Below the pieces are notes generated by a model that did not search any database, was not told the DNA's origin, and saw nothing but the letters and a program-made list of their open reading frames with translations. From positions 1-53,318 of the IMG/VR virus record IMGVR_UViG_3300033463_000040: a stretch of 53,318 nt of DNA; one strand, written 5' to 3'. Shown here piece after piece: positions 21,137 through 51,600 of this stretch; positions within the stretch are counted from its first letter, which is position 1; every line of letters starts with the position of its first letter. A program made the translations under genes and the position numbers. This DNA comes from a virus. Lineage: Duplodnaviria > Heunggongvirae > Uroviricota > Caudoviricetes.

Positions 21137-21652
21137 ATGACAAGTATAATGAGTACATATTGGCTTCGTGATGATATTAGAGATATGAAAGCTTGTACTA
21201 GATACATCTTATTTAGATGCTGTAAAAAAGTAAGAGAAACATATAAATTAGGTGAAGATATTGTGGGTTGGGAAAGTTCTGTACGCACAACTTATTTACC
21301 TATAGATTTTATGGATTTCAAATGGATAGTAGATCGTTGTAACTTTGAATTAGCTAAGAATTTTGGTACTGATTTGTTACCTAATAGTTTTTTGAGTTGG
21401 TATCAAGATAGTCATTTTGTACCTGAAAATTTTGATGATGACTTCACTTGTGATTATAAACGCCAAAAAAATGGTAAATTTAAAAAAGTACAATCTAATA
21501 ATGTAGAATCAGATTTTATTTCTGCAGCAGAAACTTGGGCAATGGACAAAATTATTCGTAGATGGAAGTTATATGGTAGATTCTATATAAAGTTAGATAA
21601 TCTTAAATGGAAAGTTAAAAACAAATTTAAAAGGAGTAAAATAAAATGGTAA
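21137..21652 (+). CDS. Hypothetical protein
   Basis: 171 aa ORF with AAGGA RBS. Confidence 0.6.
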   Translation: MTSIMSTYWLRDDIRDMKACTRYILFRCCKKVRETYKLGEDIVGWESSVRTTYLPIDFMDFKWIVDRCNFELAKNFGTDLLPNSFLSWYQDSHFVPENFDDDFTCDYKRQKNGKFKKVQSNNVESDFISAAETWAMDKIIRRWKLYGRFYIKLDNLKWKVKNKFKRSKIKW

Positions 21653-22743
21653 GAACTATTGGAACAGCTTCATATGGTTTAAGAGCACCTATTATCAAAC
21701 AAGGTGATGATTTAATTCAGATTGTAGTTGATACGGTTTTGAATTCTGGTTTAGAAATTAAAGATAGAGATGTATTAGGTATTACAGAATCTATCGTTGC
21801 TAGATGTCAAGGTAATTATGTTACTATTGATGAAGTAGCAGAAGAAGTTAGAAAAATTAGTGATAATGCGGATGTTATTATTATAGATAGACCAATTTAT
21901 TCCCGTAATCGTTTTGCTATGATTTTAAAAGCAATTGCTAGAGGAACTGGTAAAAAAGTAGTTATTATTATGCCACCAGTTGATGAAGTTGGCAATGTAA
22001 TAAGAAATCATCCTTTTACTAAATTAAATTATGATGAATATTATAAATCAATTGTAGAAGGCGAAGGTAAAGAGTGTGAAATTATTGATGATATAAAAAA
22101 TAAAGAATTACTTTCTATTTATAAAGAGAATCCATTTGTAATAGATGCTAGAATGTATTTTACAACGAGTAATGAAGAAGAAATAAAAGAATTGAAAAAT
22201 AATATCGGTGGTTATTGTACGTTAGCATATATTTGTAGAAATAAATGTGAATATGGTTTATATGGCTCTAATAAAGCATCTGAAGAAATGTTAAAACTAT
22301 TTCCAAGTGGTGAATATTCAAGAAATTTAGTTAGAGAAGTTCAACAAAGAATTAAAGATGCAACTGGAAAACTGATTGAGGTTATGATTTATGGAGATGG
22401 CTGTTTCAAAGATCCTGTTGGTGGAATTTGGGAATTTGCTGATCCAGTAGTAAGTCCTGCCTCAACTATGGGATTACAAGGTACTCCAAATGAAATTAAA
22501 ATTAAAAACTTTGCTGATGAAAAGTATAAAGATTTACATGGTGAAGAATTAAATACGGCTATCAAAGAAGAAATTAAAAATAAAAGTTCTAACTTGAAAG
22601 GCAATATGATGAGTCAAGGTACGACACCGCGTAGATATACTGATTTATTAGGTTCGTTAATGGATCTTACTTCAGGATCGGGTGATAAAGGGACACCGTT
22701 TATATATGTCCAAGGCTATTTTGACAATATGTCCAATGATTAA
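21646..22743 (+). CDS. CofE-family (F420-0:gamma-glutamyl ligase-like) protein
   Basis: GLRAPIIKQGDDL, DRDVLGITESIVARCQGNY, MIYGDGCFKDP, DLLGSLMDLTSGSGDKGTPFIYVQGY. Confidence 0.8.
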   Translation: MVRTIGTASYGLRAPIIKQGDDLIQIVVDTVLNSGLEIKDRDVLGITESIVARCQGNYVTIDEVAEEVRKISDNADVIIIDRPIYSRNRFAMILKAIARGTGKKVVIIMPPVDEVGNVIRNHPFTKLNYDEYYKSIVEGEGKECEIIDDIKNKELLSIYKENPFVIDARMYFTTSNEEEIKELKNNIGGYCTLAYICRNKCEYGLYGSNKASEEMLKLFPSGEYSRNLVREVQQRIKDATGKLIEVMIYGDGCFKDPVGGIWEFADPVVSPASTMGLQGTPNEIKIKNFADEKYKDLHGEELNTAIKEEIKNKSSNLKGNMMSQGTTPRRYTDLLGSLMDLTSGSGDKGTPFIYVQGYFDNMSND

Positions 22744-23155: not shown

Positions 23156-24481
23156 ATGATAGACAAAACATTAAATCAAATTGTTAATAAAGAAAAAGAT
23201 AAATTAAATAGTGAATTAGTACTTATTGCATCTGAGAATTATCCATCTCAAGATATATTAGATTTAATGGGTTCTGCTTGTTCTGTACCTTATACAGAAG
23301 GTTATCCTTTATCTGTATCTAAACAAGGTCGTCATTATGCTGGTTGTGAAGTTATTGATGAATTAGAAGAATATTGTATTGTTAAAGCATGTGAATTGTT
23401 TAGAGTTAAATTTGCTAATGTACAACCAATGTCTGGATCACATGCTAATACTTGTGTATATTATGCTTTTTGTAAACCAGGAGATCGTACCTTATCAGGT
23501 AATCTTAATGAATTAGCGCATTTAACTCATGGAAGTAAATTTACACATTCTGGTCGTTTTTATGAAAATCATAACTATGAATTAATTAATGAAAGAATTG
23601 ATTATGATGAAATAAAATCTAAATTATATGATGTATGCCCAAGATTGTTAATTATGGGCTATTCTGCATATTCAAAAAAGATTGATTTTCAAAAAGTACG
23701 TGAAATAGTTGATGAATATAATAAAGAATTATTATTAAACATTAAGCATTGTATGGGATTTCCACCAGAAGAAGAAGAAAAAGAGTATGAATCTAAAAAA
23801 TGTATTCTTTGGACTGACATGGCTCATTTTAGTGGATTTATTGCTGCTCATGTATGGGAAGATAAATATGATCCAACACAATGGTCAGATGTGGTAACTA
23901 CAACTACTCATAAAACTTTAAGAGGCCCGCGTTCTGCAATTATTTTATGGAATAATCCAGATTATTGTAAGAAAATTAATCAAGCCGTATTTCCAGCTAA
24001 TGCAGGTGGTACTAATCAAGCAGCAGTAGCAGCCAAAGCTCAAGCGTTTATTGAAGCATTACAGCCTGAATTTAAAGATTATATTAATCAAGTACATACT
24101 AATATAAAAGCATTAGTTAAAGGTATTGAAGAAGAAGATACTGAACATAAATTACGTTTTGTTAGTGGTGCTGATACTGAAAATCACATGATATTACTCG
24201 ATGTTAAAGGTGCAGGAATTACAGGTAAAGAAGCTGAAGATTTATTGACAGCAAACCATATTATTTGTAATAAAAATATGATTACCGGAGATACTAAACC
24301 TTCAGAATGTACAGGTATTAGATTAGGTACACCTGCTATTACAACTCGTGGTTTTACTGAAGAAATGAGTAATACCCTAGGTAAAGTAATTGCTAGTATT
24401 TTATTAAAACAAGGTGATCAGCAAGAAATTACATCTGTTATTGTATCATTATTAAATGAAGTCGGTGAATTTTATAAATAA
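23156..24481 (+). CDS. glyA: Serine hydroxymethyltransferase
   Basis: LIASEN, EGYP...HYAGCE, ANVQPMSGSHAN, HLTHG, DMAHFSG, TTTTHKTLRGPR (PLP Lys), GIRLGTPAITTRG. Confidence 0.95.
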   Translation: MIDKTLNQIVNKEKDKLNSELVLIASENYPSQDILDLMGSACSVPYTEGYPLSVSKQGRHYAGCEVIDELEEYCIVKACELFRVKFANVQPMSGSHANTCVYYAFCKPGDRTLSGNLNELAHLTHGSKFTHSGRFYENHNYELINERIDYDEIKSKLYDVCPRLLIMGYSAYSKKIDFQKVREIVDEYNKELLLNIKHCMGFPPEEEEKEYESKKCILWTDMAHFSGFIAAHVWEDKYDPTQWSDVVTTTTHKTLRGPRSAIILWNNPDYCKKINQAVFPANAGGTNQAAVAAKAQAFIEALQPEFKDYINQVHTNIKALVKGIEEEDTEHKLRFVSGADTENHMILLDVKGAGITGKEAEDLLTANHIICNKNMITGDTKPSECTGIRLGTPAITTRGFTEEMSNTLGKVIASILLKQGDQQEITSVIVSLLNEVGEFYK

Positions 24482-28837: not shown

Positions 28838-31800
28838 ATGCAGGGTTGTCCATTTATTAAAAGAAGTAAGAAAGAATACGAGTCAGAGTTAGGACCTAAG
28901 CTTTTTTTAATAGCTGAACAACCTTTAGAAACAGATAAAGAAGAAATCTTTGATTCTTTTATAGCTATAAATTATTTAACTGAAGTATTTAAAAGTAGAT
29001 TTAAATCAGCAGAAACACATATTACTTATGTTAAAGATTCTACAAATGAACCTTTTGCACGAAATGTATTTTTTAATCTTTTAGGGCATTATGTTAAAAG
29101 AGGTACATTAGAGCCTGATAAGTTAGTTATTGCATTTGTAGGTCAAAAAGCATTTGAAGCATTTAAAGCAGATTATTTATCACAACCGGATATGGGTGGA
29201 ATTGAATTATATCTAAATGAAAATAAAAAGATTCTTAGAATTACAGCCGTATGGTTAAATAGATTGGTTTTAGACGAAAAAGGTAAGCCAAAAGATGTAT
29301 TAGTACCATATGTAATTTTACCTGATATTACAGAAGATTATACAAATATTGTACAACAATTAAATAATATTTCATTTAGTAAAGAAATAGTTTTATCACC
29401 TTATTGCGATACCAATCAAATTATTACTAAACTACAATTCTTATTAGAAGCTTATGAAGACAATATTTTATCCTATTTTACTTTTGAAGGTAAAGCCAAT
29501 TTAGTAACTCGTAAGATTGAATATTTTAGTATTTATGATGAATATACTAAAATTACTTTAAGGTATTGCCCTACTGATGATATTTGTAAAAATGATTCTC
29601 AAGAGTTAAAGTTAAAGTTTTATGATATATTAAAAAAAGTATTGATTACTATTCCTGTAATTGGTAATAATGTAGAAAATTTAATACAATTATTTCCATT
29701 TAAAGATCAAATAACTATATCTGATGTTAATAATTTACCAGAAGTAACAACTATAGGTAAAGCTAGTAAATTTGAAATTACAGGTGATAGAAATGGTACT
29801 GAACCTTCAGAATGGTATTATAAATGGTATAAAGAAGTATTACCAACTTTAGGATTAGATGATAAAGAAATCGAAAGAGAAGGTTATAATACTAAACAAA
29901 AATTTGAATGGATATACGATATTGAAGTATTTCATGATGATTGGCTTTTTGTTGCTAAAACTTTAGATGGTAAAAATAGATTAATCTGTTGGAATGATCC
30001 AGAAAGATTATATGATTGGGCCAAGAATAAAATTTTAATTGGATTTAATAATGCAGCATATGACGATGTAGTTATTCGTCATGCTATGTGTTTTCCATTT
30101 TTAATTGATCAAAGCCTAACTGTTAAAAAGTATTCAGATGCTTTAATTTTACATGGAGCTAAACCTGCATATCCTGAAATGAAGCCAAAATCAAATTGGA
30201 ATCCTAATTTCTTATCTTGGGATATTAGTTTTCATGGTCCATTTGATATCCGTCGTAATTCATTAAAAAAGCTTACTATGTCTGTATTAAATAAACGTAA
30301 TTATGATAGTAGCGTTTCATTTGATACTCCAAGAAAATTAACACCAAAAGAAAGATTGGATGTTGAAAAGTATTGCGAAATGGACGTTGATAATACTTTA
30401 GCATTATTTATGCCAGATCCTGATAATCCAAAACGTACATTTGCAAAAGAATCATATGATATTCGCTGGAATATGATTGTTGAATATAAGATGAAAGCTA
30501 AAACTCTTATTAATAAATCATCGTCTTTTGCAGGTAAATTATTGTGTGGTGAAGATGCTAAAGCTAATAAACAAAATACTTATAAAATAGTAAATGGCAA
30601 GAAACAATATTATTCTATTCCAGAATTAGCAATGAAAGAATTAGTAAATGATGATGGTACACCAACAAAACTTTTACAATTCTATTTAGATAATCAAGAT
30701 AATCCGGATTATATTAAAGAAAAGTTTGAAGTACAACTTGGTGGTTTTGATGAAGGTCATAAATATCAATTTGGATTTGGTGGATTACATCAAGCTTTGA
30801 TTGGATATAGAAGTAAAAATTTAGTTAATATGGACGTTGCTTCATTGTATCCTTCTTTATTGGTGGAATATGGATTAATGTCTAGAGGGGCTGCTAAAAA
30901 TCCTGAATCATATAAAGAAGTATATCATACACGTTTACAAGCTAAAAAAGAAGGAAAAACACTTCTTAATTTAGGTCTTAAATTGATTCTTAACGGTGCT
31001 ATTGGTGCTATGTTATCAGAATTTAATCCATTATATGATACATGGTCTAATTCATCAATTTGCGTGCATGGACAATTGCTATTATTTATTTTGGTAAAAC
31101 GCTTATATGATGCTGGTTTTAATATTATTCAAACCAACACTGATGGTATTATGATTGAACGCCAAGAAGGGGTAGATTTTATGCCTATTGCTGATCAATG
31201 GCAAAAAGAAACGAGATTAGTCTTGGAATTTGATGAAATTGATACTTTAGCTCAGAATAATGTTAATAATTACTATTGTAAGTTTACTAATGGCAAAGTA
31301 AAGTCTAAAGGGTTTTATTTATCAAACGAAAAATTTGGTAAAGCTACTTCTAAGATTTTATGTAATATGGTAACAGATCAGCCGTTATTAGATGGTGTAG
31401 AACCAAGAGATTTTGTATTATATAAGAAACATGCGATTGGTGAGATTTATGATGGTAAAACTAATAAAAAAGTTGATGGTCGTAGTTTAGCTTTTGTAGT
31501 AGGTTTTCCTAATGATCCAAGAACACAATCTTATTATAGTCGTAGTAAAAACGCAAGAAGTGTTGCTAAGAAAGATGAAAATGGTAATCCTGTTTTAGAT
31601 AAAGATGGTAAACCTGAAACAGAAATAGTACATACTATAAGTAAGATTACAGGTTTTAATGATCATATGCTATTAGTTGATGATTTAAATACCTTAACTA
31701 TGGATGAAATTAATACTATGCAATATATCGCATTTGCTAGAAATTTATTAGATGATAATAGTGGTGAATTTGGTCCATATTATACAGCAGATTATGAAAA

Positions 31801-32509
31801 GGTCGAAGAAAAAGATGTATTACAAGCTTTAAATAATTTTAAAGATAATACAGCCGAATATCCAACTAATAGTAATGTATATGCACAAAATTTACTATTT
31901 GAATGTGATGATATGACTAAAGAAGAACAAGAAGAACAAATTAATAAACATAAAGATTTGTGGTATCGTGTTGTTTGGTCGGGTAGTAAATCATATCATT
32001 GTGTAGTTAAATTAAGTCATCCTGTAACAGCTTTGCAATATAAGAATATATGGTATTATATTATGTATACTTATAAGCTTATTGGATGTGATGAACAAGC
32101 CAATGTACCATCTAAATATACCCGAGTACCAGATCAAATGAATCCAAAAACTGGTGAAATGGCTACTTTATATTTATATGATAAAAATGTCTTAGATGTT
32201 GATACTATTTTAGCCGAATTACCAAGAATTAAAGAAAGTATAAAACCATTTAAAGAATATACAGGTAAAGTTGATATGAAAGCCTTGGAGAGACATATTA
32301 AAAAATTTGACTGGAGTGAAGGTAATCGCTTTGCTGCTTGTCAAAAACTATCTCCAAGATTAATATCACAAGTACCTATGGAAGAATTATTAAAGATGAT
32401 TCCTGATGGTGATTGTTTAGATAAAGATCATAAGTTTGTAATTCGTAATAAATATAAATATTATGAAAAGCATAAAGATGAAATTGAAAAAGAATTGTTA
32501 GAAGGATAA
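28838..32509 (+). CDS. Family B DNA polymerase with degenerate UDG-like N-terminus, 3'-5' exonuclease and C-terminal AEP primase domain
   Basis: Exo YDIEVF, GFNNAAYD, YCEMDV; Pol DVASLYPS, KLILNGAIG, QTNTDG; AEP LLFECDD, SGSKSYH, GCD...TRVP. Start set at the ATG after GGAGG. Confidence 0.88.
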   Translation: MQGCPFIKRSKKEYESELGPKLFLIAEQPLETDKEEIFDSFIAINYLTEVFKSRFKSAETHITYVKDSTNEPFARNVFFNLLGHYVKRGTLEPDKLVIAFVGQKAFEAFKADYLSQPDMGGIELYLNENKKILRITAVWLNRLVLDEKGKPKDVLVPYVILPDITEDYTNIVQQLNNISFSKEIVLSPYCDTNQIITKLQFLLEAYEDNILSYFTFEGKANLVTRKIEYFSIYDEYTKITLRYCPTDDICKNDSQELKLKFYDILKKVLITIPVIGNNVENLIQLFPFKDQITISDVNNLPEVTTIGKASKFEITGDRNGTEPSEWYYKWYKEVLPTLGLDDKEIEREGYNTKQKFEWIYDIEVFHDDWLFVAKTLDGKNRLICWNDPERLYDWAKNKILIGFNNAAYDDVVIRHAMCFPFLIDQSLTVKKYSDALILHGAKPAYPEMKPKSNWNPNFLSWDISFHGPFDIRRNSLKKLTMSVLNKRNYDSSVSFDTPRKLTPKERLDVEKYCEMDVDNTLALFMPDPDNPKRTFAKESYDIRWNMIVEYKMKAKTLINKSSSFAGKLLCGEDAKANKQNTYKIVNGKKQYYSIPELAMKELVNDDGTPTKLLQFYLDNQDNPDYIKEKFEVQLGGFDEGHKYQFGFGGLHQALIGYRSKNLVNMDVASLYPSLLVEYGLMSRGAAKNPESYKEVYHTRLQAKKEGKTLLNLGLKLILNGAIGAMLSEFNPLYDTWSNSSICVHGQLLLFILVKRLYDAGFNIIQTNTDGIMIERQEGVDFMPIADQWQKETRLVLEFDEIDTLAQNNVNNYYCKFTNGKVKSKGFYLSNEKFGKATSKILCNMVTDQPLLDGVEPRDFVLYKKHAIGEIYDGKTNKKVDGRSLAFVVGFPNDPRTQSYYSRSKNARSVAKKDENGNPVLDKDGKPETEIVHTISKITGFNDHMLLVDDLNTLTMDEINTMQYIAFARNLLDDNSGEFGPYYTADYEKVEEKDVLQALNNFKDNTAEYPTNSNVYAQNLLFECDDMTKEEQEEQINKHKDLWYRVVWSGSKSYHCVVKLSHPVTALQYKNIWYYIMYTYKLIGCDEQANVPSKYTRVPDQMNPKTGEMATLYLYDKNVLDVDTILAELPRIKESIKPFKEYTGKVDMKALERHIKKFDWSEGNRFAACQKLSPRLISQVPMEELLKMIPDGDCLDKDHKFVIRNKYKYYEKHKDEIEKELLEG

Positions 32510-32832: not shown

Positions 32833-33342
32833 ATGATTTATACAAAAATTAAGGATGTTAAAGATCCAATTGGTAATCGCCAAGAAGATGCTGGTATTGA
32901 CTTTTTCGTTCCAAATGATTGGAATGAAGGTAAATCTTATATTTTGAGATTAGGTGAACAAGTTAATATTCCATCTGGTATTAAAACTAAATTAAAAAGC
33001 AATCAATATTTACAAATGATGAATAAATCTGGTGTAGCATTAAAGAAAGGTTTAGTATTTGGTGCTTGTGTAATTGATGCAGGTTATCGTGGTGAAATTC
33101 ATTTGAATATGTTTAAAGTAGTAAAAGGCACCGAAGATATTCGAGTTCGTCGTAAAGGATTTTTAGGTTGGTTAGGATTTAAAGAATGGGCAACTGTAAT
33201 TAATCCAGGTGATAAGATTATTCAAGGTATTATTATTAACATCTCAAATGAAGCTTTAAAAGGTGTACCTAATAAAGTATATGATCAGGGTCCAAAAACA
33301 AAAAGAGCAACAGGTGGTTTTGGAAGTACTGGTTCAAAATAA
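32833..33342 (+). CDS. dut: Trimeric dUTPase
   Basis: AGIDFF, KSGVA, VIDAGYRGEI, KIIQG, RATGGFGSTG (five motifs). Confidence 0.9.
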   Translation: MIYTKIKDVKDPIGNRQEDAGIDFFVPNDWNEGKSYILRLGEQVNIPSGIKTKLKSNQYLQMMNKSGVALKKGLVFGACVIDAGYRGEIHLNMFKVVKGTEDIRVRRKGFLGWLGFKEWATVINPGDKIIQGIIINISNEALKGVPNKVYDQGPKTKRATGGFGSTGSK

Positions 33343-33638: not shown

Positions 33639-34010
33639 ATGGCTAAGAAAGAATATAAAGAAATAATTACTGCAAAAGAACCAGGTGGTGGAATTAAATA
33701 TGATCAAGGTAAACTTAATTGGTCTTTATTACCATGGGAAGTTATTGAAACGGCAGTAAATAGATATACAGTTGGTGCAAAAAAATATGAACCTTGGTCA
33801 TGGACATTAGTAGATCATGGTAAAGAAAGATATGAGTCTGCTTTAATGCGACATTTTATGGAATATAAAAGAGGTAATCGTTGGGATGAAGATCCTAATT
33901 TTGAAGAACATCCATCTACTCATTTACAAGCAGCACTTTGGAATATGATATGTTTAGTATATTATGAATTACAAGATATTAAAAAAGAAAATGATGAAAA
34001 GAAGGATTAA
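33639..34010 (+). CDS. dATP/dGTP diphosphohydrolase-like protein (DUF5664 family)
   Basis: GIKYDQGKLNWSLLP, GAKKYEPWSW, RYESALMRH, HLQAALWN; start set at the ATG after AAGGAG. Confidence 0.75.
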   Translation: MAKKEYKEIITAKEPGGGIKYDQGKLNWSLLPWEVIETAVNRYTVGAKKYEPWSWTLVDHGKERYESALMRHFMEYKRGNRWDEDPNFEEHPSTHLQAALWNMICLVYYELQDIKKENDEKKD

Positions 34011-34013
34011 AAA

Positions 34014-34388
34014 ATGAAAGTATTACACAAAGTAATTACAGAGAAAGCATATAAAAATGCTTTAGAGCGTAGTGAAATGAATCATAGAACAGAAACTCCT
34101 AGTTTTCTATTTTATGGTAAAGGTCGTTATGATAAAATTTTATATATAGAAAAAGGTAAAGTACGTTCAAGTAAATGTTCTTTTATATCTAATGAAGTAA
34201 TCCCTTTTGATTTGAATGATTTAGATGATTTACAGTATTTTAATAGTTCTTATCATACATTTATTAATAATATTACTAAAGGTCAAAATCATAGTGTATC
34301 AGTATGTGAAGTAGATAGTGATGGTAATTTAATAAGAGATTTGGAAGAGTATGAAGTTCTAGATATATGTAATCGTGCAAAAAAATAA
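34014..34388 (+). CDS. Hypothetical protein
   Basis: 124 aa ORF with AAGGA RBS inside the operon. Confidence 0.55.
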   Translation: MKVLHKVITEKAYKNALERSEMNHRTETPSFLFYGKGRYDKILYIEKGKVRSSKCSFISNEVIPFDLNDLDDLQYFNSSYHTFINNITKGQNHSVSVCEVDSDGNLIRDLEEYEVLDICNRAKK

Positions 34389-34399
34389 AAGGATTATAT

Positions 34400-35275
34400 A
34401 TGAATGCTTACAACCAACAATATTTAAATTTGCTTAAAGAAATTTTAAAGGAAGGTTTTAATGCGCCTTGCCGTACAGGCAACGAAGTCCTTGTAAGATT
34501 AAATAAAAGTCTTACCTGGGATTTAAACGAAGGCTTTCCTATTCTTACTTTTAGACAAATTCCTTTTAAAGGCGTAAAAGGTGAATTATCTTGCTTTTTA
34601 GAAGGGATTACAGATAAGCAAATATATAAAGAGCGTGGTTGTAATTATTGGGATTATTGGTGTAATCCTAAAAAAGTTCCATATTTTAATAAAGAAGGAA
34701 TGAAAGAAGAGAGAGATTTAGGTAATATTTATGGTTGGAATTATCGTTATTTTGGTGCACAATATGAAAGCTATGATACAGGTTATAAAGGACAAGGTAT
34801 TGATCAGCTTTCTCAAATTGTAGATACTCTTAAAACAAATCCATATGATCGTCGTATGATTATGACAGCGTGGGATCCTGCTCATATGGATACAATGGGT
34901 TTACCACCATGCCTACATACATGGCAATTTAATTATCTTAATAATCAATTACATCTAACAGGAATTCAAAGAAGTGCAGATACTATTTTAGGTGTACCAT
35001 CAGATATGGTTCAAGGTGCTTTATTATTACATTTAATGGCACAAACAGTTGGTATGCAGGTTGGTACATTAACATTAGAGTTTTGTAATTGTCATATTTA
35101 TGATAATCATCTTCCTATTATTGCTGAGCATATGAATACTTGGGAAAAATGTGAAATTCCTTTGCCTAATTTAATCTTAGATCCAAATGCAACAGTATTT
35201 AATTTCTTACCAGATATGGCTAAATTAGAAAATTATCAATATGGAGAAAAAGTAAGTTTTGAAATAGCCGTTTAA
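34400..35275 (+). CDS. thyA: Thymidylate synthase (ThyA) family enzyme with dCMP-type specificity residues
   Basis: CRTG, EGFPILT, GEL, DLGNIYG, GIDQL, RRMIMTAW, LPPC, QRSAD, HIY, C-terminal EIAV; PCL replaces PCH and PSD replaces PFN. Confidence 0.88.
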   Translation: MNAYNQQYLNLLKEILKEGFNAPCRTGNEVLVRLNKSLTWDLNEGFPILTFRQIPFKGVKGELSCFLEGITDKQIYKERGCNYWDYWCNPKKVPYFNKEGMKEERDLGNIYGWNYRYFGAQYESYDTGYKGQGIDQLSQIVDTLKTNPYDRRMIMTAWDPAHMDTMGLPPCLHTWQFNYLNNQLHLTGIQRSADTILGVPSDMVQGALLLHLMAQTVGMQVGTLTLEFCNCHIYDNHLPIIAEHMNTWEKCEIPLPNLILDPNATVFNFLPDMAKLENYQYGEKVSFEIAV

Positions 35276-35308: not shown

Positions 35309-35473
35309 ATGCAAGTAGATCAAAATATTTGTATTGGTTGTGGTGCATGTCAAGCGATGTGTCCTGCAGGTGCAATTCGGTTTAAAAATGGTAAATCTGA
35401 AATAGATCAAAGTAAATGTTTAAATTGTGGTTCATGCGCAACAGTATGTCCAATGGGTTGTATTTCTAAGTAA
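35309..35473 (+). CDS. 2x[4Fe-4S] ferredoxin (54 aa)
   Basis: Not in the track. AAGGAG RBS; MQVDQNICIGCGACQAMCPAGAIRFKNGKSEIDQSKCLNCGSCATVCPMGCISK* with two CxxCxxCxxxCP motifs. Confidence 0.92.
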   Translation: MQVDQNICIGCGACQAMCPAGAIRFKNGKSEIDQSKCLNCGSCATVCPMGCISK

Positions 35474-37305: not shown

Positions 37306-37821
37306 ATGATAAGCTTTGAAACTACATTTTTAGATTATCCTAATCCAGACGATCTCGCTGTTGTAGTAATTATGTCTGGATGCTCACATAACTGTTTAGG
37401 ATGTCAAAATCCAAAATTACAAGAATTACATGAAGAATGGACATATGATCAAGAACAATCTATTATATTAGAAATTCAAAAGTTGTGTTTAAGAAATGAG
37501 ACTAATAAGATAGTTTTATCTGGTGGTGATCCATTAAATCCATGTAATAGAAATTTAACTATTCATATTTGTGAACTTTTAGGTAATAATACAGAATATA
37601 AATATGATATTTGTATTTATACAGGATATGATATAGAGGAAGTTAAGGAAATGGGTTTAAATGGATTTACTTTTATTAAGTGTGGTAAATTTGATGCTCA
37701 TTCTATGCGCGAATCTAAAAAAACAGATGAATATATCCAATTTGTAAATACAACACAAAACTTATTTGATAAAAACTATAATCAAATATCTAAAGATGGA
37801 AGATACTATTTTACTAAATAA
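37306..37821 (+). CDS. nrdG: Anaerobic ribonucleotide reductase activase (radical SAM)
   Basis: MSGCSHNCLGCQN, VLSGGDP, IYTGY, IKCGKF...QFVNTTQ. Confidence 0.88.
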   Translation: MISFETTFLDYPNPDDLAVVVIMSGCSHNCLGCQNPKLQELHEEWTYDQEQSIILEIQKLCLRNETNKIVLSGGDPLNPCNRNLTIHICELLGNNTEYKYDICIYTGYDIEEVKEMGLNGFTFIKCGKFDAHSMRESKKTDEYIQFVNTTQNLFDKNYNQISKDGRYYFTK

Positions 37822-37835
37822 CATGGAGTATAAAA

Positions 37836-39590
37836 ATGACCGAAGAAAAGAAAGCGATTAAAATTAAGTTTCCTGAATTCGATAATAATATGGAAAATCC
37901 ATATCAGGATGAGATGAATAAGCTTATTGATGCAAATTTGTCTGATGCTACAACTACTCGTACTTTAAAAAATATTACAGAAACATTAACGAAAGCGCTT
38001 CGGTCTAAGTATGATATTAAAGATAAAGAAGTTTTAAAAGATAAAGTAAATGAATTACTTAAATTACATGGTTTATCTGCTGAAAATTTTGATCCATTAG
38101 CTAATATCTCCAAACAAGTATTTGGTAATCTTCAGTCTGTAAATGATGTATCTATTGATGATAATGCAAATAAAACAGATTCAAATATGACAGGTGTTTG
38201 TGTAGAATCATTTCTACCATATCAAAAATTAGCAGGATATGATTATTTATATCAAACTATTAAAGATTTATATGGTAAAGAAGAGGCTAAAAAATGTACA
38301 GCAGATATGTATGATTTTAGTCTTTTTTTAAACGATTCTACTAAAATCCTTATTCCATATTGTTATTGTATCGATGCTTCTAAAATTGTAACAGAAGGTC
38401 GTAATTTTGGTCAAGTACATTCTTCACCTGCTCATCGTATTTCTACTTATATTTCAGTATTAGGAGATACAATTCGTGAAATTTCCTTTAATATTGCAGG
38501 TGCTGTAGCCATTGGTACTTTCTTTATGGATGTTTGTCATTTGGCAATTTACCGTGAACGTATTGCTTTAGATGACCTTAGAAATGACAAAAAAGTACGG
38601 AAATCTATGGCAAATCATTTCCAGCAATTTATTCATACAGTAAATCATTATTCTCGTAATGCTGTAGAATCACCTTTTACCAATGTATCGTTATTTGATA
38701 AAAACAAATTAGAAGGTTTAATCGAAGATGATAATTATGGTTGGTATTTTCCTAAAAAAGCAGCAGTATGCGAAGATAATAATATAGAAGATACAAAAGA
38801 AGCTTGGAAAGAATTTGTTTTAGATTATATTGAAGAATTACAAGAAATTTATATTGATGTCTTCGATGAAGGTGATCCATTACGTGGTGGTTTACAATTT
38901 CCATTTCCTGTAACTACCTGTAACTTTGGTACTACTAAAGATGAAAGCGGTAATAATAAGTTAACATATGAAGATAATAAATTGCTTGATTATTTGACCA
39001 AGAATGCAGATATTTCTCGTTATAATATTTATGCTTCAGAAGGTTCAAAAGTTGCTTCATGCTGTCGTTTATTAAGCGATTCTGACTTTTTAGCATATGC
39101 AGGTGGTGTTAATTCATTTGGTGGTTCACAGGTCTCTTTAGGCTCACATCGTGTAGTAACTATTAATTTTGCTAGATGTGCTTATGAAGCCGAATCTTAT
39201 GATGACTTTAAAAAGATTGTAGCAGAGCGTGTTGCTAGAATGGGTAAGATTTTAAAAGCACATAAAGTTTTAATCTTAAAATTAGAAGAATTAGGTAAGC
39301 AACCTTGGATTTCTAATGGATGGATTGATATGTCTCATATGTTTAGTACTTTTGGTTGTGTCGGATATGTAGAAGCTGATAAGATCTTAAAATTTAAATT
39401 TGATCATATCGATTTTGATTACATGAAAGATTTCTTAGTGTATTTCAATGATGAATGTCAAAGAATTGCTACTCAAGAAAACATTATTTTTAATATTGAA
39501 GCAATCCCAGCCGAAGGTGCTGCGCCAAAGATTGCTAAAGCAGATAAACTAATTTTTGCTGATGAAAATGGTGATTACTTATACGAATAG
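37836..39590 (+). CDS. nrdD: Class III ribonucleotide reductase, catalytic N-terminal part
   Basis: PYCYCID, QQFIHTVN, PFTNVSLFD, FPFPVTT, SCCRL finger loop, GSHRVVTINFAR, IEAIPAEG. Confidence 0.88.
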   Translation: MTEEKKAIKIKFPEFDNNMENPYQDEMNKLIDANLSDATTTRTLKNITETLTKALRSKYDIKDKEVLKDKVNELLKLHGLSAENFDPLANISKQVFGNLQSVNDVSIDDNANKTDSNMTGVCVESFLPYQKLAGYDYLYQTIKDLYGKEEAKKCTADMYDFSLFLNDSTKILIPYCYCIDASKIVTEGRNFGQVHSSPAHRISTYISVLGDTIREISFNIAGAVAIGTFFMDVCHLAIYRERIALDDLRNDKKVRKSMANHFQQFIHTVNHYSRNAVESPFTNVSLFDKNKLEGLIEDDNYGWYFPKKAAVCEDNNIEDTKEAWKEFVLDYIEELQEIYIDVFDEGDPLRGGLQFPFPVTTCNFGTTKDESGNNKLTYEDNKLLDYLTKNADISRYNIYASEGSKVASCCRLLSDSDFLAYAGGVNSFGGSQVSLGSHRVVTINFARCAYEAESYDDFKKIVAERVARMGKILKAHKVLILKLEELGKQPWISNGWIDMSHMFSTFGCVGYVEADKILKFKFDHIDFDYMKDFLVYFNDECQRIATQENIIFNIEAIPAEGAAPKIAKADKLIFADENGDYLYE

Positions 39591-39599
39591 GAGTAAAAA

Positions 39600-40031
39600 A
39601 TGCGTAAAAGAAAAATGGAAGATATATATGCTAATCAATGGTGCAGTTTATGGGAAGATTTTACAATCTCTGAAAAAATGAAACGAGATGGTGAAATTAA
39701 TTCACTTATGACAGGTGGATCTATTGTTCACTATTCAGTAGATAGTAAATTAACTTCACAACAAGCTAAAAATATGATTATGAAAGCAATTGATGCAGGT
39801 GCAGAACATTTTGCTTTGAATTGTGTTTATACAGAATGTCGTGAATGCCATAAAGTAGAAAAAGGTAACTTTGAAATATGTCCACACTGTGCTAGTAAAA
39901 AATTAAATCATTTTTCTCGTGTAATTGGATATTTTTCAATTGTAGAAAACTGGAATCCTACTCGTAGAAAAGAAGATTTTCCAAATCGTAAGTTTATTAA
40001 AGCAGAACAACTTAAGGAACAGTTAATCTAA
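39600..40031 (+). CDS. nrdD: Class III ribonucleotide reductase, separate C-terminal glycyl-radical/Zn-ribbon part
   Basis: TGGSIVH, CRECH...CPHC, FSRVIGYF...NWNPTRRKED...R; own AGGAG RBS. Confidence 0.88.
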   Translation: MRKRKMEDIYANQWCSLWEDFTISEKMKRDGEINSLMTGGSIVHYSVDSKLTSQQAKNMIMKAIDAGAEHFALNCVYTECRECHKVEKGNFEICPHCASKKLNHFSRVIGYFSIVENWNPTRRKEDFPNRKFIKAEQLKEQLI

Positions 40032-40085: not shown

Positions 40086-40673
40086 ATGGCAAATCTTCAT
40101 TTCTTTTATGGAACAATGGCAGCAGGTAAAAGTTCTCATTTAATACAAGAAAGATATAACTTTGAACAAAAAAATGCCGATGTTTGGGTAATTAAACCTA
40201 AAGCTGATAGCAGGACAGAAGAACCAAAAATTACTTCTAGAATTGGATTAGAATGCCCAGCAACTATTATGAAAGAGATTAAATGGGAAGACATTATCCA
40301 AATGCGAGAATTTTATTCTAAAATATATATGGTAGATGAAGTTCAATTTTTTAAGCCAAAAGATATAGATAGTTTAGTCAAACTTGCAGATACATATGAT
40401 AGATTAATTTTTTGTTATGGTTTATTAACAGATGTAAACGAAAAGTTATTTCCTGCTTCTAAACATTTAATTGAAGTAGGGGCTAAATTACACGAATTAA
40501 GGACTACTTGTCAAATGATAGGTTGTATGAATACTGCAAATCATCATTTACGATATCATCCTTCTGGTTATTTAATTAGAGAAAGTAAAACTATAGATAT
40601 TGATGATGGACATGTTGTTTATAAATCTGTATGTCGTCAGTGCTATGACAGAGAAATGAGAAAAAAGAGATAA
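40086..40673 (+). CDS. tdk: Thymidine kinase
   Basis: FYGTMAAGKSSHL, IKPKADSR, ITSRIG, VDEVQF, YGLLTD, C-terminal CRQC; start set at ATG 40086. Confidence 0.9.
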   Translation: MANLHFFYGTMAAGKSSHLIQERYNFEQKNADVWVIKPKADSRTEEPKITSRIGLECPATIMKEIKWEDIIQMREFYSKIYMVDEVQFFKPKDIDSLVKLADTYDRLIFCYGLLTDVNEKLFPASKHLIEVGAKLHELRTTCQMIGCMNTANHHLRYHPSGYLIRESKTIDIDDGHVVYKSVCRQCYDREMRKKR

Positions 40674-40723: not shown

Positions 40724-41386
40724 ATGTCAGATTCAACAAAACAGCATTATTTTAAAAATAGAAATACAAGTAAACGCGGTAAAAATCGTGAGTTATATTT
40801 TACTCCCGATTTTATTATAAAATTGATTGTAGATGATTTACTTGATACATATCCTGAATTAAGAGAAAAAACTTGGGTAGATCCTTGTGCTGCAGATGGT
40901 AGATGGGAAAAATATATTCGTAGTAAAGGTATAACTTGTAAAAGTTATGATTTATGCCCATTAGATTCAACCGTTATACAGCAAGACTTTTTAAATGATT
41001 CTTGTACTAGCTTAAAAGATTGCTTTATTATAGGCAATCCTCCGTTTTCGTTGTTAAAACCCTTTATAAAAAAAGCACTGTCTTTAACTGATCAATGCTA
41101 TTTTTTGGGAGGATCTCAGATTATTACAGGTAAATTATCTGATAAAGTAAAAATGCTGCATACATTTGAAAATTTTGAAGGTAATCAAAAAGATCATCGC
41201 TCTAAAATAGCCTTTATTGATACTTTAAATAATGATTTGATGGTATGGTGTTGTGGGGCAGTTTTTACAAATGATACACAACCTAACTTTGTACGGAATA
41301 AAATAATAACTCCTACAAATTTTAGAGTAGGAGCTACTAGTTTGTGCGAAAAAGATTCACGTGTTCATGTATTAAAAAAAGTATAA
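40724..41386 (+). CDS. Amino (N6-adenine/N4-cytosine) DNA methyltransferase
   Basis: YFTP, WVDPCAADG (motif I), QQDFL, IIGNPPF (motif IV). Confidence 0.75.
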   Translation: MSDSTKQHYFKNRNTSKRGKNRELYFTPDFIIKLIVDDLLDTYPELREKTWVDPCAADGRWEKYIRSKGITCKSYDLCPLDSTVIQQDFLNDSCTSLKDCFIIGNPPFSLLKPFIKKALSLTDQCYFLGGSQIITGKLSDKVKMLHTFENFEGNQKDHRSKIAFIDTLNNDLMVWCCGAVFTNDTQPNFVRNKIITPTNFRVGATSLCEKDSRVHVLKKV

Positions 41387-42428: not shown

Positions 42429-43217
42429 TTAAAAATATTTTTCTTTTTTATGTATTTTAATATTTTGTAACTCATATTTACAAGGTTGAGATAAAGTATT
42501 ATTTAATAAAGTATTTAGATCTTTAAACTTGCTATTATTTACAATATTATCTGCTACAGATAACCAACCACATATTTTAAGTAAATCTAAAGAATCATCT
42601 CTTTTTTCTGTAACTTTAACATCAAATGATAATATAAAAGGTTTTTTTGGTTTATCGTAATTTTTATATAAAGTTCGTTTATGTAATACTTTTGAAGTTT
42701 TCATAAATTCTTGAACAAGTGGTAAATTAATTACTTCTAAAAATTTTTGTTTATTAATTTTTATAGGTAAATGTGCTTCATATGAATATAAAGGTTTTCT
42801 AATGCCTAATTCATTTAATAAATTCTTTATATGAGCAAATCCATCTGCCCAACCACCAACATGTGATTTATACCTAATAATAATATCATCTAATTTTCCT
42901 AGATTAGAATCAATTACTTTTTCTAACGGTAAAATTGGACTAATTGCAAAAAAATCATCATTCATTAAGATAAAATTATCTGAAATATTTGGGCATTCAC
43001 AAGCTTTGATTACATTTAAAGTAGAATTAGCCCATTTTGTTCCTTTTTGTTCAACCGGAAGATATTCCACATTTGTAACCCAAGCTGGCTTATATCCAAT
43101 AATCCATACTTTATTATTAGGATAATATTTAGCAATCGATCTAAGAGAATATCTTAAATCTATACCTTTTTCGCCAGGTTTAATTATATATACAAAATCC
43201 ATATTATTTGTATTCAT
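42429..43217 (-). CDS. Stealth-family-like sugar-phosphate transferase
   Basis: MDFVY (CR1-like), DLRYSLRSI (CR2-like), FILMNDDFF. Confidence 0.65.
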   Translation of the reverse strand: MNTNNMDFVYIIKPGEKGIDLRYSLRSIAKYYPNNKVWIIGYKPAWVTNVEYLPVEQKGTKWANSTLNVIKACECPNISDNFILMNDDFFAISPILPLEKVIDSNLGKLDDIIIRYKSHVGGWADGFAHIKNLLNELGIRKPLYSYEAHLPIKINKQKFLEVINLPLVQEFMKTSKVLHKRTLYKNYDKPKKPFILSFDVKVTEKRDDSLDLLKICGWLSVADNIVNNSKFKDLNTLLNNTLSQPCKYELQNIKIHKKEKYF

Positions 43218-43957
43218 TAAAAATACCTATCTCTTTTTTTCTTTAATTTAGAAAGATGCATTTCTGTATATAATTTTCTATGCACTGCTAAAATTGTAGC
43301 ATTAATTTGTAATCTTTCTTCTGTTTTGATAGTATTACATAAATTAGTTTCATGCGCTCTATAATAATATAATGGTTCAAGAATACTTTTTATTGGCATC
43401 CTTTCTAATATTTGTAAATGAAAATCAAAATCTTCACACATTTTATAATTTTCATTAATAGCTATTTCTGACAACAAAGAAGTCCTAAACATCATTCCAC
43501 CGGCATATCCGTAACCATTAATCTTTCCAAATAATACAGATTTTAAATTCCACTGCACTGGTCTATGTATATACTGTTGTCTTTTACCAAATCTTTTTAA
43601 TTCACAACATACCGCCCCATAATTAGGATTATTTTCTAAAAAAGTTACTTCTTTTTCTATCAAAGTTGGATCTATTATATCGTCACTATCTATTCTAACT
43701 ACATATTTACCCGTTGCTAAATTAAATACTTTTTGTGCAGTTTTATTCATTCCTAAATTAGTTTTGTTTCTTACTAATTTAATCTTTGGAGATAATTTTT
43801 TTATATAATTATATTTTATGTTAGGAGAACAATCATCGATAAAAATAATTTCCAAATTTTGATATGTTTGATTTAGTATGCTTTCAATACATTCATTAAC
43901 ATATTCTTTTTTTATATCATATAATAAAGAAACTATTGAAACTAATGGTTGTTCCAT
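43217..43957 (-). CDS. Glycosyltransferase family 2
   Basis: LVSIV, ECIESILNQTYQNLEIIFIDDCS, RIDSDD (DxD), EDFDF. Confidence 0.9.
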   Translation of the reverse strand: MEQPLVSIVSLLYDIKKEYVNECIESILNQTYQNLEIIFIDDCSPNIKYNYIKKLSPKIKLVRNKTNLGMNKTAQKVFNLATGKYVVRIDSDDIIDPTLIEKEVTFLENNPNYGAVCCELKRFGKRQQYIHRPVQWNLKSVLFGKINGYGYAGGMMFRTSLLSEIAINENYKMCEDFDFHLQILERMPIKSILEPLYYYRAHETNLCNTIKTEERLQINATILAVHRKLYTEMHLSKLKKKRDRYF

Positions 43958-49131: not shown

Positions 49132-49524
49132 TTATTCCATTTCTGTTGATGTTTCTTTAAGCAGTTGTTCTTCTATGGCTAATACAGTTTTAACATAACT
49201 ATATGCATTCATTTTTAATAAAACTTCAAAACTTTCTTTTTTATCTGGACAAACTTTACACAAATTATTATAAATTATCTCATAACCAAGAAGTATTATC
49301 TTAGCAAAGTCATTTCTTTCTTTTGCTTCCATATAATTTATCATAAATCCATCAAAAGATGTATTTATAAGATGCGGAGGATCTAAATTAACTGTACCGT
49401 AAATACCATTATTAGCATGTATATCTACCCAAGCTGAAGTACCTACTGGTATAGTACAAAGATCTTCTTTTTTTATTTCTTCATCAACTGAAGCTTGGCC
49501 GTTTCTAAGGATAGAATCAAACAT
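49132..49524 (-). CDS. Hypothetical protein
   Basis: 130 aa with AAGGAG RBS inside the 3' end of the ligase gene. Confidence 0.55.
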   Translation of the reverse strand: MFDSILRNGQASVDEEIKKEDLCTIPVGTSAWVDIHANNGIYGTVNLDPPHLINTSFDGFMINYMEAKERNDFAKIILLGYEIIYNNLCKVCPDKKESFEVLLKMNAYSYVKTVLAIEEQLLKETSTEME

Positions 49525-51362
49525 TTTTGCTCCTTTGCTTTCATGATTTTACTAGAAGTACTATTTGGATCTTTTGCAATCAGAACATTTACTTTTTTAC
49601 TAAATGTTTCAGTTACTGTAGCTCCATTATCTTCTAAATATTTTGCGAATTCTTTATCTCTAACACCTGTAAAGCATATCACATATTTATTAAAAGGTAA
49701 AGTCGAATTTTTCTGTATTTTCTTAAATTGATATCCAAAAGATTTAAATAGACTAATTATACTTAACCAATTACCATAGTTATTGTTATATTGCTTTACT
49801 CTATTAGACCCAAAATTTTCAATTTCTTCAGTTAAAGATACCAGTTCACCATATTTTTGTTCAATTTGAGATAATAAACTTTCACCAAAACCTGGACCAA
49901 ATGCACCACAAGCATCTGCAAGTTTAGATTCAGTAATTTCATCTTTAATTTTTTGAATACTATTATATAATTTACTACCATTAACTCCCAATGCAATTAC
50001 AAATGTTGCTTCATTAAATGATAACAAAAATAATGGATTTTCAAGCTGTGGATTCATATCTAGAAGCTTTTTCATAGATGCTTCACCTGCTTGATCTAAT
50101 TTTAATGTTTCAGCAAAATGCATTAATCGTTGAATAGTTACTTCTTTTATACTTTTATCTTTTAAATATAAATCTACACCCTCTTGATAAATATCATTAG
50201 GCAAATTAAAATCAGTTGAAGGTGTTAATACTTCTTCAAGATATGGAATAACTAATCCGGCCCGTTTAATTATTACTTTAGATCCAATACCACATTGTTT
50301 ATCTACTAAATTTTGATAATTATGACCTGTTACATTAGATATAGTAGATCCACATAATTCAATTGGTTCAATATTTAATACCGGAGTTAATTTACCTGAT
50401 TTTGAAGGTTGCCAAGTAATATCTTTAACGATAGATTCTGCTTTATTATCATAAATACCAATCTTAAATTTACGACTACATTTAGGATTAATAGTACCAG
50501 ATATAAAGCCTTCTTCTGGATTATCTACTTGTGTTAAAATAATACCATCTATTTCATATTTAGATATAAATAAGAATTCTTTTACTTGTTCAATTAATTC
50601 TTTTTCTGTAGTAGTATCATCTATTTCAAAATTCCAAGGCGTTTCAAATCCAAGTTCGTCTAAATAATCATCTATATCTAATCCTTTGCCTTTTGAACTC
50701 CAATATGCAACAAAATGTGCATGCTTAAATACAGCTTCATTACTTTCTTTTCTATTTAAAGCACCGGCAATGGTATTACGTCCATTCTTTTGTTCTTTGC
50801 CTTCTATTTCTGCTACTTCTTGTAACATTGTAGATATTTCATCTTTAGGACATAATAATTCACCACGAACTACTAACGTATCAGTATTTGTTATGGTTTG
50901 TGGTATATTAGATATAAAAGGAATATGACGCATGATATCTTTTCCTTTTATACCTCTACCTCTAGTTGCAGCTGAATATAATTTACCTTCTTTATATGTA
51001 AGAATGATAGAACAACCATCTAATTTTTCACTCAATAAAAACAAATGATGACCTACTTTCCATTTGTCCCAATCTCCTTCTTTTAACTCTTCCATACTTC
51101 CCATTGGTTCACTATGAATTACTTCTTTACCATAACCCGCATTTTCAGCTTGTAATTCTTTAAAAAATTTATTGCCAGGCCATTTCTTTTTAGCTTCAGT
51201 ATATATAATATCATATATACTATCAACTAAGCGCGTTTCAGTTAATTCTAAATTTAAAATCTTATTAACTTGTACCAAATCTTCCTGAGTTAATACATAT
51301 ACCCCACCTTCTGAATAGGCAAGATTAGCGGCTTTAATAATATCTTTTATTTTCTTATTCAT
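49473..51362 (-). CDS. ligA: NAD-dependent DNA ligase
   Basis: SEKLDG, VRGE, RNTIAGAL, EIDGIIL, TPVLNIEPIELCGSTISNVTGHN, C-terminal BRCT (ICFTG...FSKKVNVLIA). Confidence 0.92.
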   Translation of the reverse strand: MNKKIKDIIKAANLAYSEGGVYVLTQEDLVQVNKILNLELTETRLVDSIYDIIYTEAKKKWPGNKFFKELQAENAGYGKEVIHSEPMGSMEELKEGDWDKWKVGHHLFLLSEKLDGCSIILTYKEGKLYSAATRGRGIKGKDIMRHIPFISNIPQTITNTDTLVVRGELLCPKDEISTMLQEVAEIEGKEQKNGRNTIAGALNRKESNEAVFKHAHFVAYWSSKGKGLDIDDYLDELGFETPWNFEIDDTTTEKELIEQVKEFLFISKYEIDGIILTQVDNPEEGFISGTINPKCSRKFKIGIYDNKAESIVKDITWQPSKSGKLTPVLNIEPIELCGSTISNVTGHNYQNLVDKQCGIGSKVIIKRAGLVIPYLEEVLTPSTDFNLPNDIYQEGVDLYLKDKSIKEVTIQRLMHFAETLKLDQAGEASMKKLLDMNPQLENPLFLLSFNEATFVIALGVNGSKLYNSIQKIKDEITESKLADACGAFGPGFGESLLSQIEQKYGELVSLTEEIENFGSNRVKQYNNNYGNWLSIISLFKSFGYQFKKIQKNSTLPFNKYVICFTGVRDKEFAKYLEDNGATVTETFSKKVNVLIAKDPNSTSSKIMKAKEQKCLILSLETAKLQLMKK

Positions 51363-51600
51363 CTGTGTTTGTCGAAGTATCTGTATCTCTACTTTGCATT
51401 ACTAAATTCCAATGATTTACTGCACCTTTTTTATTAGCACCAACAAATTCATATGGACTATATTTTTCACAATTAGTACATCTAGCATATACCAAATTAT
51501 CTACCTTAAAATAGGTAGGATAACTTATTATGTTTTTACGCCTACATATCTTACAAGGTGCTGCTCCATTCGAATCTAACACAAGGTCTTTTTCATTCAT
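51355..51600 (-). CDS. Small Zn-finger protein (Lar-like)
   Basis: PCKIC...RCTNC...AVNHWN. Confidence 0.5.
   Translation of the reverse strand: MNEKDLVLDSNGAAPCKICRRKNIISYPTYFKVDNLVYARCTNCEKYSPYEFVGANKKGAVNHWNLVMQSRDTDTSTNTDE

Follow-up and report, generated by a model that had tools for sequence, protein, structure and literature searches.

The gene at positions 34400 to 35275 (forward strand) of the DNA analyzed here encodes a 291-aa ThyA-family protein that, by the residues of its active site, is most likely a dCMP-specific homologue that methylates rather than hydroxymethylates its substrate, that is, it is a predicted dCMP C5-methyltransferase (5-methyl-dCMP synthase). Here, we will use "window" for the whole stretch analyzed, 53,318 nucleotides with a G+C content of 28%, which makes up the first 53 kb of a 117-kb IMG/VR record judged to be 49% complete. 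The explanation that we favor, and hold to be probable, is that dCMP would be converted to 5-methyl-dCMP with hydride transfer, the folate being recycled by a phage DHFR and a phage serine hydroxymethyltransferase (SHMT). A preliminary description of this sequence had already put the protein forward as a candidate dCMP-type ThyA homologue favoring methylation over hydroxymethylation, a prediction to which Asp177, a residue other than His at position 147, Leu143, Asp169, Trp80, Trp83, and the C-terminal tail (all in E. coli numbering) lend support.

The ATG of the gene is preceded by an AAGGA ribosome-binding site, and the translated ORF carries PPCLHTWQF and QRSADTILGVPSD. PF00303 covers the protein over its full length (profile positions 1-266 of 266, E 1.3e-70, 238 bits), TIGR03284 matches with 184 bits against a cut-off of 108, and PHROG 160 is also matched; with the other NCBIfam ThyA equivalog models, the protein scores under their cut-offs. 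The AlphaFold2 model (pLDDT 92.4) resembles the human, mouse, and WSSV thymidylate synthases, with Foldseek TM values of 0.88-0.91. As judged from these profiles and the model, the protein is a full-length member of the ThyA-fold family. In HMMER alignments with solved thymidylate synthases, Cys171-Leu172 (codons 34910-34912 and 34913-34915) falls on the Cys-His pair and Ser201-Asp202 (Asp202 codon 35003-35005) on the Phe-Asn pair, with PPC-L-H opposite PPC-H-x and VPS-D opposite VPF-N. A MAFFT alignment with E. coli ThyA, taken as in all our MAFFT alignments from NC_000913, gives the same correspondence (C146=C171, H147=L172, N177=D202), the Cys-to-Asp/Asn spacing is 31 residues in both proteins, and the C-terminal tail, ...SFEIAV, lies opposite ...KAPVAI (Ile289-Ala290-Val291 codons, 35264-35272). 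These alignments bear out what had been read earlier from the letters alone, that is, a Leu directly after the catalytic Cys, an Asp at the Asn177 site at the E. coli C146-N177 distance, and a canonical tail.

In canonical dTMP synthase (EC 2.1.1.45), the Asn at E. coli position 177 and the His at position 147 read uracil O4/N3, Cys146 is catalytic, and Arg21, Arg126, Arg127, Arg166, and Ser167 bind phosphate. The Asn177-His147 pair is absent from the window protein, which has Asp202 and Leu172. To see how far such a state is shared, one can turn to the relatives: a search of 5.8 billion proteins returned 524 at E <= 1e-10, the best 120 of which share 60-100% identity with the query, many of them on contigs of 200-263 kb, and the residue counts given here cover the 118 full-length sequences among these best 120. 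Every one of them has Asp at position 177 (118/118), and at position 147 there are 110 with Leu, five with Met, three with Val, and none with His; since this state is fixed in homologues spanning 60-100% identity, it is not the result of chance or sequencing error. Cys146, the four arginines, Ser167, Glu58, Tyr94, Asp169, His207, and Tyr209 are all present and invariant in the 118 members. Twelve residues were listed as lying <=6 Å from C5, and eight of these are the same as in E. coli, the remainder being A142G, H147L, C168A, and N177D.

The combination of Asp177 with a residue other than His at 147 is an established signature (MetaGPA 2021, a 2024 preprint, and NAR 2026), and the novelty that the preliminary description had implied is not supported. 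In an alignment of 433 ThyA homologues drawn from viromes that had been selected for modified cytosine, Yang et al. (2021, MetaGPA, PMC8670742) found 177 and 147 to be the two positions that best set apart the homologues on cytosine-modified viral contigs, with unmodified contigs having mostly Asn177 and modified contigs mostly Asp177. Thymidylate-synthase homologues beside seven deaminases have since been cloned, having been predicted to be dCMP methylases from residue 177; five of these metagenomic homologues, as well as the Xp12 enzyme, made 5mdC in vivo, a synthase-linked deaminase converted 5mdCTP to dTTP, and the mining of IMG/VR for Asp177 homologues was already under way by the same group (bioRxiv 10.1101/2024.12.05.627091). 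Virome mining by this approach is by now routine.

A different set of residues bears on the product. The hydroxymethylase signature derives from the ternary complex of T4 dCH, in which an Asp (or Glu) at Cys-3 activates the substrate water, Ser/Thr occupies Tyr-2, Val replaces Trp83, and the C-terminal tail is absent; the S94N change at Tyr-2 inactivates this enzyme (Park et al. 2019, PMC6400193). In the code published in 2026, N177D denotes dCMP as substrate, a bulky hydrophobic residue at 143 denotes methyl transfer, L143D/E denotes hydroxymethyl transfer, and D169N denotes a 5-hydroxy-dCMP synthase (PMC13326640). Throughout the clade, position 143 is Leu (118/118; window Leu168, codon 34901-34903) and position 169 is Asp (118/118; window Asp194, codon 34979-34981). 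The Trp at position 80 is likewise universal (118/118; window Trp84) and that at position 83 nearly so (116/118; window Trp87), the Tyr-2 site (E. coli P92) is Asn in 116/118 (window Asn109), and the tail reads [I/V]-A-[V/I] in 118/118 (I-A-V in the window protein). The T4 signature of an acidic Cys-3, Ser/Thr at Tyr-2, and a missing tail is therefore not present, Leu168, Asn109, and a full tail being found instead; neither is the D169N mark of the 5-hydroxy-dCMP synthases (RB69 gp48 type), Asp194 being invariant in the clade. The window protein agrees with the product rule for dCMP methyltransferases in having a non-acidic residue at 143 (Leu168), Trp84, Trp87, and the I-A-V tail, and since Leu143, Asp169, Trp80, Trp83, and the tail are all kept, the predicted product is 5-methyl-dCMP, together with dihydrofolate. 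One should employ some caution with the Leu143 rule: the proven Xp12 methylase has Asn143, Ser at Tyr-2, Phe83, and a shorter tail, so that the rule should read "no acidic residue" at 143 and not "Leu", and it is a correlation, not a law.

Two further replacements in the folate PABA pocket run through the clade: E. coli Ile79 is Tyr in 118/118 (window codon 34646-34648) and Phe176 is Ala, Ser, or Thr in 118/118 (window codon 35000-35002). Tyr79 with a small residue at 176 also occurs in some Asn177 enzymes (e.g., P0132, P0134, and P0177), and the two changes look like a compensating pair independent of the dCMP switch.

The clade is set well apart from other known sequences. When 1.84 billion cluster representatives were searched exhaustively with HMMER, a sharp identity gap was revealed, with one representative at 61% and the others at <=40%; to the nearest representatives of 50%-identity clusters, the clade has only about 40% identity. 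No protein of a cultured phage exceeded 39% identity in a tblastn search with the ThyA protein, and no match was obtained by megablast when 10 kb surrounding the gene were compared with 50,697 phage records. The search for related loci found none with the single protein and four relatives with the family alignment. The clade sequences come from runs of 2019-2024, mostly from bovine gut (Logan contigs), and by these sequences the clade is a well-populated bovine-gut lineage and a new member of an established enzyme class.

A tree with the Xp12 and T4 gp42 enzymes, which had been proposed as a check, places the query clade on its own with a support of 100, the Xp12 enzyme and T4 gp42 forming long outlying branches, and no grouping of the clade with the Xp12 enzyme was seen among its 76 rows. 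Asp177 is scattered among canonical Asn/His enzymes in this tree, with at least nine state changes, whether arising or reverting, a count that is approximate, as the tree was built quickly and many of its inner branches are weak. Judged by sequence, the Xp12 enzyme is farther from canonical thymidylate synthase than this lineage, and the Asp177 state of the lineage may be separate in origin from that of the Xp12 enzyme.

The neighborhood of the gene is a nucleotide-metabolism block. It begins with a CofE-like ligase, SHMT, ClpP, NifS/NifU, RecA, a 1223-aa ORF, and ribosomal protein S21, and continues with a dUTPase, a PF18909 protein, a 124-aa ORF, the ThyA homologue, a ferredoxin, thioredoxin, NrdG, a split NrdD, and thymidine kinase. 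The genes of this block whose positions are given in the present paragraph are on the forward strand. SHMT (23156-24481) regenerates the one-carbon donor methylene-THF, and the thymidine kinase (40086-40673), of which no homologue was found in the relative G001, offers a salvage route to dTMP. The trimeric dUTPase homologue (32833-33342, 169 aa) is syntenic with the ThyA gene in 4/4 related loci and could serve in dUTP exclusion or possibly in dCMP supply. The small PF18909 (dGTP_diPhyd_N / DUF5664) protein (33639-34010) is a candidate nucleotide pyrophosphohydrolase, for which a PDB sequence search gave nothing usable. The 124-aa ORF (34014-34388), lying between the PF18909 and ThyA genes and a few bp from each, matches no family, and the loci of the relatives contain no homologue of it. 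Directly 3' of the ThyA gene, the 2x[4Fe-4S] ferredoxin (35309-35473) is probably a partner of the anaerobic reductase and not of the ThyA enzyme, and the anaerobic ribonucleotide reductase module (37306-40031; NrdG 37306-37821, NrdD 37836-39590 and 39600-40031) would supply dNTP precursors in an anaerobic host.

Several other features of this region are worth recording for those annotating related genomes. NrdD (37836-40031) is encoded by two genes in the same frame (584 and 143 aa), between which a TAG and then GAG TAA are found, together with an AGGAG ribosome-binding site and a fresh ATG; because the break has its own ribosome-binding site and ATG, the glycyl-radical C-terminal piece would be made separately. 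The same split occurs in G002, and NrdD is a single fused ORF in G001 and G004. The CofE-like F420-0:gamma-glutamyl ligase homologue (21646-22743, PF01996 E 6e-45), just 5' of SHMT and kept in G001 at 60% identity, might, given the folate enzymes nearby, add glutamates to folate or another cofactor. The 1223-aa ORF (28838-32509) is about 60% conserved in all relatives and has no Pfam match. Small ORFs resembling N6-adenine DNA methyltransferases of PHROG 799 are found after the thymidine kinase (40724-41386, E 1e-15) and directly 5' of the ThyA gene in G001 (E 4e-63; L011 9334-9981), and the phage may, by this likeness, practice adenine methylation as well. Some 7-9 kb downstream of the ThyA gene, a GT2 glycosyltransferase and a Stealth-like protein are encoded; the glycosyltransferases (42429-43957) were considered as DNA modifiers and dropped, there being no link to the nucleotide module, from which their homologues are far removed in G001. 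T4-like structural genes are also present in the phage.

No second ThyA, ThyX, PF00383 deaminase, DHFR, C5 DNA methylase, or PF21448 kinase was found in the 117-kb record, though at 49% completeness its gene absences should not be taken as evidence of absence from the whole genome. The missing half can be approached through matching contigs. The DHFR homologue P0405 and the window ThyA protein have in common a longest contig of 231,566 bp, three sources, an ENA sample, and a Logan run, and the ENA sample has the ThyA gene and the DHFR gene on separate contigs, of 136,184 and 95,497 bp (about 231.7 kb taken together). Upstream of P0405, at a distance of 1.6 kb, a 191-aa PF00383/MafB19 deaminase is encoded. 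From the matching contig, sample, and run, the query phage very probably carries both the DHFR and the deaminase-family protein on its other half. The arrangement of deaminase, an ORF of about 350 aa, and DHFR recurs in metagenome contigs L043 and L045. Since a hydroxymethylase returns THF and only methyl transfer gives DHF, a phage DHFR argues for a methyl product.

The conserved ORF of about 350 aa (L043 3162-4226, L045 8913-9998, L047 8970-10004; also G001 66285-66986) follows the deaminase and has no Pfam or PHROG family, and there is an overlap of 4 nt between it and the start codon of DHFR in L043, L045, and the contig of the query phage; it was considered as the missing kinase or dCTPase and dropped, as it belongs to no family and there are sigma-factor-like and HTH proteins of phages among its Atlas neighbors. 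In the relatives, the NAD-dependent DNA ligase gene and the small gene next to it are separated by a dCMP-deaminase-family gene of 145-151 aa (G001 196219-199218); in the query phage, ligase and next gene abut (49473-51600) and the deaminase is missing at that site, the distinct 191-aa deaminase lying beside DHFR on the other contig. Among the best 120 homologues of the ligase-side deaminase of the relatives, none was on a contig matching the query subclade in length.

Two near-complete relatives, G001 (237 kb, 98% complete) and G002 (227 kb, 95% complete), carry a single ThyA apiece, which is of the Asp type, along with one deaminase and one DHFR each; neither ThyX nor a second ThyA was found in them. 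In three of the four loci of the relatives, a T4 gp1-type dNMP kinase (PF21448 E 3e-18; PHROG 139 E 4e-47) is encoded between the dUTPase and ThyA genes, a position that the PF18909 gene occupies in the query phage and L013. Searches of the 117-kb record and G001 with tblastn and phmmer saw a T4 gp1 homologue in G001 only and a T4 gp56-type dCTPase in neither, and no dNMP kinase was found in the 117 kb. Past the window, the record encodes a UDG-family protein (PF03167), a NUDIX hydrolase, a HAD/PNKP-like protein, and a peptide deformylase (81425-91000), and the NUDIX protein is a candidate for the missing dCTP-clearing activity.

The observed fold, residues, clade conservation, and gene content allow the substrate, product, and DNA composition to be predicted as follows. 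A thymidylate-synthase-fold enzyme would take dCMP in place of dUMP and pass the one-carbon unit of 5,10-methylene-THF to C5, where the cofactor hydride would reduce it to give 5-methyl-dCMP and dihydrofolate. Cys171 would attack C6, Asp202 would bind and protonate cytosine N3/N4 where Asn177 would bind uracil, and Leu172 would stand in for the His contacting uracil O4. Leu168, Trp84, Trp87, and the closing C-terminal tail would exclude water, with the result that the exocyclic methylene intermediate would be reduced, not hydrated, and phage DHFR and SHMT would recycle the folate. We infer that 5-methyl-dCMP would then be phosphorylated (in the relatives, by the T4 gp1-type dNMP kinase) and built into DNA as 5-methylcytosine (5mC), and that part of the 5-methyl-dC nucleotides would be turned into thymidine nucleotides by the phage deaminase, with thymidine kinase adding salvage. 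The preliminary description had also suggested that the genome may carry 5-methyl- or 5-hydroxymethylcytosine; given dCMP methylation, we think there is a good chance that the base would reach virion DNA as 5mC.

The same enzymology would hold, and the fate of the product alone would differ, if 5-methyl-dCMP were only an intermediate that the deaminase converts into thymidine nucleotides, giving the phage a dUMP-independent source of dTTP while its virion cytosine stays ordinary. In favor of this, the genome has an A+T content of 72%, the sole ThyA/ThyX homologue of the near-complete relatives is the Asp-type enzyme, a PF00383 deaminase accompanies the synthase, deaminases of this kind act on 5mdCTP (bioRxiv 10.1101/2024.12.05.627091), and the absence of an identified dCTP-excluding dCTPase from the record and G001 fits as well. 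However, the published synthase-deaminase pairs concentrate on cytosine-modified contigs and Xp12 does both (PMC8670742; bioRxiv 10.1101/2024.12.05.627091), and the gp1-type kinase beside the synthase in the relatives suggests channeling to the triphosphate pool; we regard an intermediate-only role as unlikely. The missing kinase in the 117 kb and the missing dCTPase nevertheless count against our favored explanation, as does the distance from the Xp12 enzyme (about 29% identity and no sister position in the tree).

The A+T content and the want of another thymidylate synthase would equally fit a retained activity on dUMP. The enzyme might still act chiefly as a thymidylate synthase (dUMP to dTMP) whose active site is unusual and whose specificity is possibly relaxed and dual, being the sole ThyA-family gene product of an A+T-rich phage, with every catalytic and folate-binding feature intact save 147 and 177, and with an adjoining dUTPase that would supply dUMP. 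Against this, 118/118 members have Asp177 and have lost His147, and thymidine kinase and the deaminase are other sources of thymidylate; we consider this improbable, and a little more so than the intermediate-only role. Least probable by our estimate is a dCMP hydroxymethylase that makes 5hm-dCMP like T4 gp42, or another C5 product that is later glycosylated, for although Asp177 is common to gp42 and the phage has T4-like structural genes and the downstream GT2 and Stealth-like proteins, Cys-3 is Leu and not Asp/Glu, Tyr-2 is the Asn that inactivates T4 dCH as S94N (PMC6400193), Trp83 and the full tail are present, position 169 is Asp and not Asn, no DHF would be made and hence there would be no reason for a phage DHFR, and the glycosyltransferase homologues of G001 are far from the nucleotide module.

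Returning to methylation of dCMP as the preferred reading, a broader proposal can be put forward only tentatively, as somewhat short of an even chance: that T4-like rumen jumbo phages with genomes of about 230 kb have, as a whole clade, abandoned the dUMP route, a single 5-methyl-dC pool feeding both full replacement of C by 5mC and, by way of the phage deaminase, most of the thymidine of the 72% A+T genome. Were 5mC indeed to stand in place of cytosine in an abundant group of cattle-rumen jumbo phages, host restriction cutting of phage DNA would be affected, as would methylation-sensitive library preparation and nanopore base-calling and, hence, the reading of rumen viromes; on the broader proposal, 5mC genomes would be common among cattle-gut phages. 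The paired deaminase could be of the 5mC-selective class that is now used in methylome sequencing. The current understanding of the enzyme family is unchanged by this finding.

Among the closest known systems is that of phage Xp12, in which every C is replaced by 5mC (PMC7653180). Its enzyme (QNN97214.1, MT664984) is like the window enzyme in its ThyA fold, Asp177, non-His147, and Asp169, and both phages combine a dCMP-deaminase-family gene and DHFR with the ThyA homologue in their repertoire, this being very probable for the query phage. The Xp12 enzyme differs, however, in forming a long separate branch and in having Asn143, Phe83, Pro147, and a tail that is four residues shorter, where the window enzyme has Leu143, Trp83, and the canonical tail; in addition, the synthase, deaminase, and DHFR genes are adjacent in Xp12, whereas in the query phage, with its genome of about 231 kb, the synthase gene is in one half and the deaminase-DHFR pair in the other. 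The Asp177 homologues of MetaGPA have the same diagnostic pair, association with a PF00383 deaminase, and predicted product as the window enzyme; the window clade belongs to bovine gut jumbo phages.

The engineered enzymes E. coli N177D and L. casei N229D carry the same substitution as the window enzyme on an otherwise canonical scaffold with an intact tail. A second change at L. casei His199 is said, in work by Agarwalla et al. from 1997, to improve dCMP methylation. The single substitution makes thymidylate synthase a dCMP methylase, according to the work cited in PMC8670742. The window enzyme differs in being natural and fixed under selection and in having the extra clade-wide changes of Ile79 to Tyr, Phe176 to Ala/Ser/Thr, and Cys168 to Ala, and its nearness to canonical thymidylate synthase would make it a clean natural counterpart of N177D/N229D for the study of pyrimidine specificity. 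T4 gp42, finally, is like the window enzyme in its ThyA fold, catalytic Cys, Asp at the 177 site, and dCMP substrate, the latter being predicted for the window enzyme, but it is a tail-less protein of 246 aa with Asp145 at Cys-3, Ser94 at Tyr-2, and Val at the Trp83 site, and it yields THF and no DHF, which only methyl transfer yields (PMC6400193); none of these features is found in the window enzyme.
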